64,000 nucleotides of DNA, taken from Candidatus Bathyarchaeia archaeon. Lineage in GTDB: Archaea; Thermoproteota; Bathyarchaeia; 40CM-2-53-6. The notes below the pieces were generated by a model. That model did no database searches, was not told the origin of the DNA, and worked only from the letters and a program-made list of their open reading frames with translations. The stretch is taken from NCBI GenBank assembly GCA_050013255.1, contig JBEKFP010000002.1, forward strand, positions 224,001 to 288,000, given 5' to 3'. Positions 16,639-20,461 of this stretch are shown piece by piece (positions within the stretch are counted from its first letter, which is position 1; every line of letters begins with the position of its first letter). Made by a program: the position numbers and the translations under genes.

Positions 16639-17673
16639 ATGAAAGCAAGTTTCGATCGAAACGAGTTTTACAGTCGACAAATAGTGCTAAGCGAGCTGGG
16701 TGTAAGCGGCCAAAAGAAACTCAGGGACTCAAAAGTCGCCGTCGTAGGTTTGGGCGGCCTAGGAAGTGTTTCAGCACTTTACCTTGCCTTAGCCGGCCTC
16801 GGTAGACTGACACTTGTGGACCAGGACACCGTTGAAATGAACAATTTACACCGACAGGTCCTGTATTCTCTCGAAGACATCAGGTACCCCAAGGTCGAAG
16901 CAGCCGCACGAAGGATTAACATGATCAACCCGGAAGTTGAAGTCAACCCCGTCCCAGAGAATTTGGAAGCCGAGAATGTTTCAGCAATTTTGGAGGGAGC
17001 GGATTGCGTAGTCGATGGGCTTGACAACATGCAGACAAGGTACACAATCAACCAATATTGCGTAGAGAGGAAGATACCATTCGTTTTTGGTGGCGCAATC
17101 GGAATGGAAGGAAACGTAGCGTTACTCAAGAGCCCCGAAACCCCCTGCCTCCAATGCGTCTTACCAGGCTTGAAAGACGTAGACCTTCCAACCTGCGATA
17201 CTCGCGGGGTCCTGGGCGCGACAACGGGGATTGTCGGCGCCATTCAAGCGTTGGAGGCTATCAAAGCCCTTGCGGGAATTGAACCACAATCCAAAGGCAA
17301 ATTGTTGATCTTCGACTTCGCACAGTCAGAATATAGAACGGTGAACCTGAGCATCCGACCAGATTGTGAAATCTGCCAAGTAAAACCAACCAGTACCGCT
17401 ACCTACGCACGTCGGCTCGCGTGGCTGTGCGGGTCTGATACTGCCAATGTCAACCCGGAGAAACCTCTTTCGCTCGATTTAGAAAAACTGACCCGAACCG
17501 TTAGTCGAAACTACAAAGTGCTTTTGGCGACCTCGATGGTTATTGTCTTCGACTTCAATGGACATGAAATAAGCCTATTTAGGAAAGGACGAATGCTCAT
17601 CAAGAACGTCCGAGATGAGAGAGAGGCCATTTCAGTTTCGAGTGAAGTTACCAAGTTTCTTGATGCGGGTTGA
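16639..17673 (+). CDS. ThiF/MoeB/HesA family E1-like adenylyltransferase with C-terminal extension domain
   Basis: YSRQ, VGLGGLG, D.D.VE.NNLHRQ, PCLQC and DCEIC Zn motifs, TCDTRGV. Confidence 0.9.
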   Translation: MKASFDRNEFYSRQIVLSELGVSGQKKLRDSKVAVVGLGGLGSVSALYLALAGLGRLTLVDQDTVEMNNLHRQVLYSLEDIRYPKVEAAARRINMINPEVEVNPVPENLEAENVSAILEGADCVVDGLDNMQTRYTINQYCVERKIPFVFGGAIGMEGNVALLKSPETPCLQCVLPGLKDVDLPTCDTRGVLGATTGIVGAIQALEAIKALAGIEPQSKGKLLIFDFAQSEYRTVNLSIRPDCEICQVKPTSTATYARRLAWLCGSDTANVNPEKPLSLDLEKLTRTVSRNYKVLLATSMVIVFDFNGHEISLFRKGRMLIKNVRDEREAISVSSEVTKFLDAG

Positions 17674-18365
17674 CAGAAGTGACACTTCAGACGTTGGCTC
17701 CAAAATGGCCGAGCCTAAAGTTGTCCGGGCGGTCGGTCTTTCTCATTTCAGGTGGCATTGATTCTCCCGTAGCAGCGTGGCTGCTGATTCGGAAGGGTGT
17801 TGAACCCGTCTTCGCCTATTTCGACAATTATCCGTTATGCGACCAGGCAGCTGAGGGCATAGCCTTAGAGACCATTCGTAAAGTCTGCGAGCGGACGAAG
17901 GTTCAAAATTCACACGTATTCATTGTATCACATTCACCGGACCTCCAGGAGATATTGTCAAAATGCCCTACCAAGTTTGCATGTATGCTTTCTCGGCGTG
18001 TGATGTTCAGGGTTGCCGAACGAATAGCTGAGCGTGAGAAATGTTCTGCGATCGTTACGGGTGACGCTGTTGGACAGAAGGCAAGCCAGACGCTTCAGAA
18101 TATTGTAGCGGCAGACTGCGTTCTCAGCAAGGTGCGTGTGCTCAGGCCCCTCGTGGGTATGAATAAGCAGCAAATTGTGACGTATGCTAAAGAGATTGGA
18201 ACCTACGAGATTTCGATACGCCCAGGGGTCGCCAGCTGTGGGGTTCCAACAAACAACCCCAGCACCTCTGCAAAGAAGAATCAACTCGCGGATGTCGAGG
18301 CGGCGTTGGACATGGAAGGGATGGTTAGCAGAGATGTTGAGAACGCCCGCGTCATTTCCATTTAG
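17670..18365 (+). CDS. ThiI-like PP-loop sulfurtransferase, catalytic domain only
   Basis: SGGIDSPVA, TGDAVGQKASQTL, RPLVGMNK..I...AKEIGTY; no NFLD/THUMP domain. Confidence 0.8.
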   Translation: MTEVTLQTLAPKWPSLKLSGRSVFLISGGIDSPVAAWLLIRKGVEPVFAYFDNYPLCDQAAEGIALETIRKVCERTKVQNSHVFIVSHSPDLQEILSKCPTKFACMLSRRVMFRVAERIAEREKCSAIVTGDAVGQKASQTLQNIVAADCVLSKVRVLRPLVGMNKQQIVTYAKEIGTYEISIRPGVASCGVPTNNPSTSAKKNQLADVEAALDMEGMVSRDVENARVISI

Positions 18366-18653: not shown

Positions 18654-18771
18654 TTCCCGCTGAGAATCAGTCACCCAGATCACCATGAGTTGAGAACTGT
18701 CATCGAATTGCAACTACACGTGCAGGTTTATTAGAGCTATGTGCCCCAACGATTCGATTGCCGGGGAGAAT

Positions 18772-18921
18772 GCCGGGGTTGGTCTTTGGCTCTATAGCCT
18801 ATGGCCACCGAAGGCCGAACGGTCCAGGCGGCGGGCTGCAGTAGACTAAAGCTTGCCGCAACCCGCAGTATAGAAAGCGAAAAAATCGCTGAGGTGGGTT
18901 CAATTCCCATCCCCGGCTCCA
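18772..18921 (+). tRNA. tRNA-Cys(GCA) with three predicted introns (18780-18812, 18842-18860, 18872-18893)
   Basis: Acceptor GCCGGGG/CCCCGGC, U73, encoded CCA, anticodon stem GCGGG/CCCGC with CT-GCA-G, T arm GTGGG-TTCAATT-CCCAT; removal of three BHB-flanked segments gives a normal cloverleaf. Confidence 0.88.
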
Positions 18922-19205
18922 AAATCTTCTGCGATTTAGGTCATGAAGCCAAGATTGGAGTTCTGAGAGAAAACTATTCTCTATATTGCGAGCGATGACT
19001 CATAAGTCTTATCCAAATTAAGCATTCGAAAGGTTCTGACAACGAGATTTGGTGCGGCCGCCAAGATTCAGCATTTGAAAGACTAAATCTCCTCAGCCTT
19101 CGACCTTACTTCTTCAGAACCCTAGAACCCTATCGCGCCTAATTAGCGAAAACAATAAACAGGCAGGTGGCGGGTTGAGTTTGGATTGAGGTTTGGTTTC
19201 ACTCA

Positions 19206-19400
19206 ATGAGCCACTATTGTCAGCTGTGTCAACCAACTAAGATATTTCGATCAAACGACCAACTGCATGAACATCATTGGACGGCTCATCGAGAATCGTG
19301 CTGTGATGTTTGTCATCATTTGCGTCGATTTCACTCAGGATTTCATGGCTGTGCAGTCTGCGGTTGCCGATACACGAAGAAGCATCCGGAACTAAACTAG
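19206..19400 (+). CDS. Small Cys/His-rich zinc-finger protein
   Basis: CQLC..F..L.EH...H C2H2-like finger plus C..C/H..H/C..C.C. Confidence 0.55.
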   Translation: MSHYCQLCQPTKIFRSNDQLHEHHWTAHRESCCDVCHHLRRFHSGFHGCAVCGCRYTKKHPELN

Positions 19401-19582
19401 CCTAGCGTGAGATCAACGACTTAATTCGTGCCAACGTTCTCTCCCGGCGCCATTTCCGCACTCTTTGTTCAGTGCTCGCCCGAAGATCCAAACGCGCACT
19501 CGTGTTCCATCTCAAGCTCCTGAAGCAATGGAAACGGTCTAGTATCCGGCTTGTTATTGTGGATGAAAGTGGCAGGGGCAGC

Positions 19583-20176
19583 TTGAGAAGACTATTCATG
19601 TTCATGACGATAAGCGTCGACGGGTTCTTTGAGGGGCGGAATCACGACATATCTTGGCACAATGTCGATGAAGAGTTTAACAAGTTTGCCATAGAACAGT
19701 TGCGCGAAACTGATGCCATTCTATTCGGGCGACGAACCTACGAGCTCTTCGAGGATACTTGGCCAAAAGCAGCCGACGACCCGAGAATGTCGAAGGATAA
19801 TCTCGAAATCGCCCGCCTGATCAATAACATGAACAAAATCGTCTTCTCGAAGACACTGAAAAAGGTCGAGGAAAAAGAGAGTTGGAGAAATGTCAAACTC
19901 ATTCGTGAAGTGAATCCGGAGGAAATCAAACGCTGGAAACAGGAACCGGGCAAAGACTTGGGTATTGGGGGCAACAACTTGGCTGTAAGTTTCGCTCAGG
20001 TAGGCTTGATCGACGAAATTCGAATTATGGTTGACCCGGTTGTCCTAGGGAAAGGCACTCCCCTCTTCGAAGGCATCAAGGACAAGCTGAATCTGAGACT
20101 TCTGAAAACTCGGACGTTCAAGTCAGGAAACGTCCTGCTTTACTACCAGCCCGTGAAGTACGGGAAGGAATCATAA
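19583..20176 (+). CDS. Dihydrofolate reductase-like / RibD C-terminal domain protein
   Basis: SVDGF, ILFGRRTYE, KIVFSKTL, LIDEIRI.V.PVVLGKGTPLF; TTG start at 19583 chosen. Confidence 0.85.
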   Translation: MRRLFMFMTISVDGFFEGRNHDISWHNVDEEFNKFAIEQLRETDAILFGRRTYELFEDTWPKAADDPRMSKDNLEIARLINNMNKIVFSKTLKKVEEKESWRNVKLIREVNPEEIKRWKQEPGKDLGIGGNNLAVSFAQVGLIDEIRIMVDPVVLGKGTPLFEGIKDKLNLRLLKTRTFKSGNVLLYYQPVKYGKES

Positions 20177-20461
20177 TGATCTTGAGACGGGAAAAATTGT
20201 GCGGTCACGGGACCGACGAGCACCATCTTTCTTGAGTAAAATGGGAGTCGAACTTTATTTTCTCTTCCCATCCCCGGCTCCAAAATTTCCTTTCGGTTCC
20301 CGTTTAAATACGAACCTCAATTAGAATTGACCGAACAAACTTGCAGTTAGACGTTTGGTGAAGAAGAGGCAGGAGATAGATGTGCAAATCGCGGAGACTG
20401 TCAAATCATTGGAGAAGCAGCGAATGATGACTGAGCTTCTCAAGAAGCTAAAGGCCAGTGT

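Follow-up and report, generated by a model that had tools for sequence, protein, structure and literature searches.

A three-intron tRNA-Cys(GCA) gene of Bathyarchaeia and a conserved leader copy of its acceptor strand as a candidate aid to splicing

How can a tRNA be spliced when the splicing motif of its first intron is built from the very strand that should close the acceptor stem? This question is raised by a tRNA-Cys(GCA) gene with three introns in an uncultured soil/peat archaeon of the Bathyarchaeia. The window analyzed here is a stretch of 64,000 nucleotides (positions 224001 to 288000 of contig C2) from a 2.46-Mb genome of three contigs with 50% G+C. The preliminary description of the locus had recognized the gene and its introns, and the most unusual feature of the locus was missed by it: a 7-nt copy of the 5' acceptor strand in the leader, 12 nt upstream of the tRNA. 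As a whole, the locus is best explained as the functional and apparently sole tRNA-Cys(GCA) gene of the host, with three bulge-helix-bulge (BHB) introns and a splicing pathway in which the leader copy would take part. We give this reading, which was reached by sequence comparison and predicted folding, a probability of about 0.85. The features of the locus, in coordinates of the window, are as follows.

18727-18734, plus strand: TATA-like box (inferred promoter), an A/T-rich octamer 33 nt upstream of the leader copy, conserved in same-genus orthologs
18760-18766, plus strand: leader copy, identical to tRNA positions 1-7, an exact 7-mer repeat 12 nt upstream of the tRNA
18767-18771, plus strand: purine-rich linker, 5 nt between the leader copy and the tRNA
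18772-18921, plus strand: tRNA-Cys(GCA) gene, four exons and three introns, spliced to 76 nt
18772-18779, plus strand: exon 1, 8 nt, tRNA positions 1-8, contiguous with exon 2 in 8 distinct orthologs
18780-18812, plus strand: intron 1, 33 nt at 8/9, relaxed BHB motif
18813-18841, plus strand: exon 2, 29 nt, positions 9-37, comprising the D arm with A15, the anticodon GCA and G37
18842-18860, plus strand: intron 2, 19 nt at the canonical 37/38 site, relaxed motif (U33 opposite C)
18861-18871, plus strand: exon 3, 11 nt, positions 38-48
18872-18893, plus strand: intron 3, 22 nt at 48/49, strict hBHBh' motif
18894-18921, plus strand: exon 4, 28 nt, positions 49-73 and the encoded CCA

When the four exons were joined, ARAGORN called a tRNA-Cys(gca) of 76 nt, exactly at the coordinates first proposed, and the product is a regular class I cloverleaf with all stems intact. 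It has a G+C-rich 7-bp acceptor stem, U8, a D stem of three Watson-Crick pairs with G13 opposite A22, a regular T arm, U73, and an encoded CCA; a CCA is also encoded after 31 of the 34 T-arm-anchored tRNA candidates in the host genome. The main identity elements of tRNA-Cys are the anticodon GCA and the discriminator U73. Both elements, at 18838-18840 and 18918, are kept in all orthologs. The D loop begins with A14 and A15 and the 5-nt variable region ends with U48, so that positions 15 and 48 are A and U, as had been described; most orthologs keep A15, and in one clade the two bases are U15 and A48, consistent with a 15-48 pair. Archaeal tRNA-guanine transglycosylase requires G15, from which it follows, as had also been proposed, that A15 precludes archaeosine. 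A TGT-family gene is present in the host.

The possibility that another tRNA-Cys serves instead had been raised as well. No second tRNA-Cys was found in the host genome by ARAGORN with introns, by Rfam, by BLAST of the locus against its own genome, or by an anticodon-loop/acceptor scan; the three best-looking extra candidates from the last scan had no T arm and were rejected. The locus is a real tRNA-Cys(GCA) gene of the host and apparently its sole copy. Room for a decaying or unexpressed pseudogene, with cysteine read by a different tRNA missing from the assembly or overlooked, might be seen in the metagenome-type assembly (three contigs, 8.55% estimated contamination) and in the finding that simple tools recognized only about 30 tRNA genes, with about 46 expected. 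However, the exons are near-invariant over at least 48 distinct loci, with variable introns, the stems are intact, the splice motifs are kept by compensatory change, the promoter-like box is conserved, and no second tRNA-Cys candidate was found, all of which makes a pseudogene highly improbable.

Several neighbors of the gene deserve mention in their own right. An exact 22-nt direct repeat lies at 18904-18925 and 20265-20286, the second copy being 1.36 kb downstream of the 3' end of the tRNA, and it comprises the 3' half of the T arm, the acceptor strand, CCA, and 4 further bases. The two copies flank an open reading frame with a RibD_C domain (19472-20176) and a small Cys/His-rich one (19206-19400). 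They resemble what is left of the attachment sites of an element that had integrated into the tRNA gene, and no integrase was seen; the relative G002 likewise has additional copies of the tRNA 3' end with downstream sequence. Directly upstream of the tRNA, at 16639-18365 on the plus strand, a ThiF-family E1-like enzyme and a protein with a ThiI PP-loop domain are encoded. In other organisms, ThiI-type enzymes make 4-thiouridine at tRNA position 8. The position of ThiI next to a gene split at 8/9 is probably a coincidence.

The placement of the introns was examined in orthologs. A search of 40 relatives and of a public collection at one genome per species gave 68 tRNA-Cys loci, 48 of them distinct. 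All three introns were present in 32 distinct loci, introns 1 and 2 in 2, intron 1 alone in 6, introns 2 and 3 in 3, and the 37/38 intron alone in 5. Where an ortholog is without a given intron, its exons join directly at 8/9, 37/38, or 48/49, exactly as predicted; intron 2, for example, is missing from Terraquivivens and from 6 distinct orthologs of Bathyarchaeia, and position 37 is followed there by 38. Since intron-less orthologs read through each predicted site, the junction placement is firm, and the boundaries and lengths first given for the introns (33, 19, and 22 nt) proved exact. Shifted junctions for intron 1 were ruled out by the flanking bases together with the intron-less orthologs, and a register moved by two positions would give an unbroken helix bearing a 1-nt bulge instead of a BHB. 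When metagenome contigs were scanned for the spliced 48/49 junction typical of the host genus, no match came up, as expected for a 76-nt RNA.

Introns at 8/9 and 48/49 had been called rare, which does not hold for this lineage. Both sites are absent from the non-canonical positions given in the review PMC4090602 (3/4, 20/21, 22/23, 25/26, 29/30, 30/31, 45/46, 53/54, 56/57, and 59/60). Here, an 8/9 intron also occurs in the tRNA-Phe of every relative examined and in the tRNA-Cys of Ca. Terraquivivens, which belongs to a different class from Bathyarchaeia, and the 48/49 intron was found in several families of the host's order. The Thermoproteales setting that the preliminary description had invoked does not apply, the host being a member of the Bathyarchaeia.

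It had been expected that standard scans may miss such a gene, and they do. Neither ARAGORN, run both in intron mode and outside it, nor Rfam at the gathering score found anything on the unspliced locus; a permissive Rfam search returned the tRNA-Sec model only (19.6 bits, E 0.16), with a match that skips introns 2 and 3. With the canonical intron alone, orthologs matched Rfam RF00005 end to end at 44.7-56.7 bits. One locus with introns 2 and 3 reached 40.1 bits with the Rfam tRNA model, and one with introns 1 and 2 gave no match, from which it appears that the 8/9 intron blinds the model. Only 19 tRNA genes in the host genome pass the Rfam model, most of them with inserts. ARAGORN in intron mode also made several implausible calls on this genome, with introns of 1-2 kb or odd anticodons; thus, the host tRNA set needs intron-aware reannotation. 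tRNA-Cys is indispensable, yet genomes of this widespread soil/peat lineage will appear to be without it because ARAGORN and Rfam do not see it.

The archaeal BHB consists of two 3-nt bulges separated by a 4-bp helix, and each bulge is cut after its second base (PMC4090602). Each expected motif pair was tabulated over the distinct sequence contexts of the orthologs. By these criteria, the motif of intron 3 is strict and those of introns 1 and 2 are relaxed, with one central-helix mismatch each, and the helices named in the preliminary description are all present. For intron 3, the outer helix joins 38-42 with 50-54 and the central helix joins 43-46 with intron bases -3 to -6; all nine of these pairs form in 20 of 20 contexts, with 3-nt bulges and the cut after the second base. 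Compensatory changes occur at 43:-3 (C-G, U-A, and U-G), and the first inner pair (i2:-7) is G-C in 16 contexts, C-G in 3, and G-U in 1. For intron 2, 32:-3 is always paired, 33:-4 is mismatched in the host and in 12 of 29 contexts, and the inner helix is short.

In intron 1, the pairs 3:-3, 4:-4, and 5:-5 form in all 29 distinct contexts, with positions 1-2 against 10-11. G6 is invariably mismatched opposite A(-6), and the first intron base, an invariant U, could pair with that A. The central helix is therefore either a 4-bp helix with a G/A mismatch or a nonstandard 3-bp helix whose cleavability has to be assumed. The inner helix covaries, its first two pairs forming in 29/29 contexts with G-C, G-U, and A-U variants, and intron bases -7 to -1 are nearly invariant. 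The same 7 bases end the 18-nt 8/9 introns of four distant loci (L056, L058, L066, and L075; three Ca. Terraquivivens and one uncultured archaeon), in which this is the sole intron and is accompanied by a leader copy. The likeness of the 8/9 introns in Terraquivivens and Bathyarchaeia may reflect an ancient shared intron, gene transfer, or convergence forced by the exons.

These motifs bring the precursor into conflict with itself. The motif of intron 1 uses tRNA positions 1-6 and excludes the acceptor stem. Positions 39-43 are claimed by the motif of intron 2 as well as by that of intron 3, and the two motifs cannot coexist, so that these two introns would have to be removed one after the other from alternative folds, and the precursor must refold between cuts. 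Such refolding has already been noted elsewhere for closely spaced introns (PMC8450103). In the unconstrained fold of the precursor, at 18828-18859, ten bases of exon 2, from the end of the D stem through the 5' strand of the anticodon stem, pair with the 3' part of intron 2. This predicted pairing would free 39-46 for the motif of intron 3 and hints at an order of splicing.

The conflict at the acceptor stem is where the leader copy becomes relevant. All 40 distinct tRNA-Cys orthologs that carry the 8/9 intron have it (2 of them with one base changed), and none of the 8 lacking that intron does. Over the 40 distinct loci, the leader bases beside the copy are only 35-70% conserved, and the linker between copy and tRNA varies in sequence and in length (4-13 nt) and is 74% purines. 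Orthologs lacking intron 1 have a comparable box 32-33 nt upstream of tRNA position 1. The spacing of the box from the copy in the host matches this, and the transcript start is therefore expected at or just before the leader copy. Judged from this spacing, the copy is probably the very start of the transcript.

Being promoter-proximal and able to form the same acceptor stem, the upstream copy could in principle be the true first exon, followed by a longer intron at 18767-18812. Its would-be position 8, however, varies among A, G, C, and T in the orthologs, and the downstream copy is always followed by U8; on this ground, the upstream copy was rejected as the first exon. Moreover, it is only the downstream copy that has the inner helix and the bulges of the motif beside it, and the intron-less orthologs fix U8 followed by G9. 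Thus, an upstream first exon has next to no probability, and exon 1 is placed at 18772-18779.

A genome-wide scan for leader copies without an anchor gave 988 mostly meaningless candidates and was replaced by scans anchored on the T arm. Among 30 T-arm-anchored tRNA genes of the host, an exact leader copy was found only for Cys and Phe, and in the remaining genes the D arm directly follows U8. In all, the module recurs in three more host tRNA genes, where each copy repeats the acceptor strand of its own tRNA. In all four genes, the copy comprises exactly the seven pairing bases, and the intron lies at 8/9 or 10/11. The tRNA-Phe(GAA) gene (C1:66517-66672) has introns at 8/9 (21 nt), about 29/30 (17 nt), and 37/38 (23 nt), so that three introns are not exceptional in this host; the 8/9 intron and an exact copy were present in 27 of 27 orthologous loci parsed across the order. 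The discriminator of this tRNA-Phe, listed as locus L099, is G, where A is usual. The tRNA-Trp gene (C2:632631) has a canonical BHB intron at 10/11 with its central helix on positions 5-8, and a copy accompanies it in 18 of 18 orthologs with the 10/11 intron (5 with one changed base) and in 0 of 4 without. A minus-strand gene (C1:26576), judged to be tRNA-Glu-like from its 5' sequence, has an intron at 10/11 too; here, the copy was found in 19 of 19 orthologs with the intron and in 1 of 10 without, one ortholog showing a one-base change in it.

The last case, tRNA-Glu of relative G022 (locus L181), is the only copy without an intron that was found: the 10/11 intron has been lost precisely and the copy kept, which suggests that the intron was lost before the copy. 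Together with the one-base changes, it indicates that the copy tolerates some decay. Intron and copy also come and go together by gene. Relatives G039 and G031 have neither in tRNA-Cys and both in tRNA-Trp, and G033 shows the reverse. These ortholog counts overstate independence, as relatives share features by descent.

To compare the competing folds, either the native acceptor stem or the intron 1 motif was forced in precursors of 40 orthologs by constrained folding. The mean energy of the splice-competent fold minus that of the native fold was -0.7 kcal/mol with the natural leader, +7.2 with a shuffled leader, and +10.9 with the leader removed, a comparison that partly follows from the design of the test and is to that extent circular. 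As a repeat of positions 1-7, the copy is necessarily complementary to the 3' acceptor strand, and in the constrained splice-competent folds all of its 6-7 bases pair with that strand, the copy at 18760-18766 with all 7. The unconstrained minimum-energy fold of the precursor, used as a hint only, also pairs the leader copy with the 3' strand; the BHBs are not drawn in it, as expected of a thermodynamic model in which bulges are penalized. No compensatory change between copy and 3' strand was seen within any tRNA family, the acceptor sequence never varying. On balance, we favor, with some reserve, the view that the 3' acceptor strand would be paired with the copy as long as the true 5' strand is engaged in the splice motif.

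The proposed pathway would run as follows. Transcription would start about 12 nt upstream of the tRNA, at the 7-nt copy of the 5' acceptor strand. The copy would pair with the 3' acceptor strand and stand in for the true 5' strand, which could then build the BHB of intron 1 without the cost of a broken acceptor stem, the splice-competent fold thereby being about as stable as the native one. An (alpha-beta)2 splicing endonuclease would cut the BHB motifs at 8/9, 37/38, and 48/49, introns 2 and 3 being removed sequentially from alternative folds. Between cleavage and ligation, the copy would tether the 8-nt first exon to the tRNA body, and RtcB would join the exons. With the intron gone, the true strand would displace the copy and RNase P would remove the leader, the CCA being already encoded.

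The copy could instead be a historical scar, left when the 5'-proximal intron arose and without a role in splicing: the old 5' strand would have been left by the promoter as a segment with a new 5' strand and an intron arrived. The spacing between copy and TATA-like box, which is that of position 1 in intron-less orthologs, fits this account, as does the copy retained without an intron in G022, and in a published model, insertion and recombination at a tRNA locus give rise to a tRNA fragment and an intron-bearing gene (PMC3293823). That model, however, leaves kilobases between fragment and gene, not 4-13 nt. A scar should also decay like its neighbors, whereas the flanking leader bases and the intron loops are scrambled and the copy is not; its 7 bases are kept in 40 distinct tRNA-Cys loci (one base off in 2) across several families and a second class. 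Furthermore, the copy ends at base 7, as pairing with the 3' strand predicts, and not at the insertion point (8 or 10), and four different tRNAs share the same design. We therefore consider a functionless scar unlikely, though it is a serious competitor, and retain the stand-in role of the copy as the preferred reading.

The enzymes that this pathway would require are encoded in the host. The preliminary description had called for an endonuclease of relaxed specificity, and the type found agrees with this. Two EndA paralogs, encoded at C2:171513-172085 and C1:301907-302470, point to an (alpha-beta)2-type splicing endonuclease. The 190-aa paralog, whose closest matches are the catalytic subunits from Aeropyrum pernix (E 1.5e-38) and Sulfolobus tokodaii (E 3.2e-37), keeps the active-site Tyr, His, and Lys, and has Lys at both positions aligned to K44/R46 of the crenarchaeal loop in Aeropyrum pernix EndA. 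This crenarchaea-specific loop confers a broad substrate range (PMC3241643). The 187-aa paralog is without the catalytic His, as expected for a structural beta subunit. An RNase P RNA (175 bits) and RtcB are also present. Such an enzyme set is to be expected in a genome rich in noncanonical introns. The RtcB match (C1:110968-113778, minus strand) falls in two parts about 1.4 kb apart within one 1,039-aa open frame, which suggests an intein or another large insertion.

As reported previously, multiple and noncanonical BHB introns, up to three per gene, occur in Thermoproteales and Thaumarchaeota (Sugahara 2007/2008; reviewed in PMC4033280, PMC4090602, PMC8450103). The present gene resembles these cases in its short, protein-spliced introns with BHB or relaxed (HBh') motifs at canonical and noncanonical sites, in their number, in the (alpha-beta)2 endonuclease with its specificity loop, and in the mutually exclusive motifs of neighboring introns. 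It differs from them in its Bathyarchaeia host, in an 8/9 motif that consumes the acceptor strand, and in a dedicated leader element of which these papers make no mention. The nearest published principle is that of the split tRNAs of Nanoarchaeum equitans and Caldivirga maquilingensis, in which leader and trailer helices assemble a relaxed BHB in trans (Randau 2005; PMC4033280, PMC4090602). There and, as proposed, in the present precursor, helices made by sequence that is absent from the mature tRNA keep the parts together and offer a relaxed BHB to the endonuclease. In split tRNAs, however, the extra sequences pair with each other across two transcripts and form the motif itself, whereas the leader described here acts, as proposed, in cis, copying one exon strand and pairing with the other, which frees the true strand.

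A census of Asgard tRNA introns found that many tRNA introns of archaea escape standard annotation and that their sites are those at which the exons are able to form a BHB (bioRxiv 10.64898/2026.10.13.758758); it covers Asgard only and makes no mention of a leader, a decoy, or Bathyarchaeia. Literature searches, including this 2026 preprint, gave no published description of a leader copy of the acceptor strand. Thus, the triple-intron tRNA is itself of a known kind, and the conserved leader stand-in tied to 5'-proximal introns is the new part.

In general, the gene illustrates the extent to which a tRNA can be invaded by enzyme-spliced introns, its precursor passing through several alternative folds. 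To the first of the fold conflicts, the leader copy offers a simple and testable answer, which bears on how tRNA introns arise and persist. We lean, by a little, toward a wider proposal: a spare 5' acceptor strand at the transcript start may be a cis-acting aid to tRNA splicing that is general among archaea and has so far gone undescribed, required when the motif of an intron at 8/9 to 10/11 borrows the acceptor strand. It would be old, being shared by Bathyarchaeia and Ca. Terraquivivens, and would be gained and lost with the intron. The strict tie between leader copy and 5'-proximal introns in four tRNAs is a rule that could improve tRNA finders that allow for introns. If the proposal is true, it would explain both the persistence of introns at sites that destroy the acceptor stem and the failure of gene finders to see these genes.
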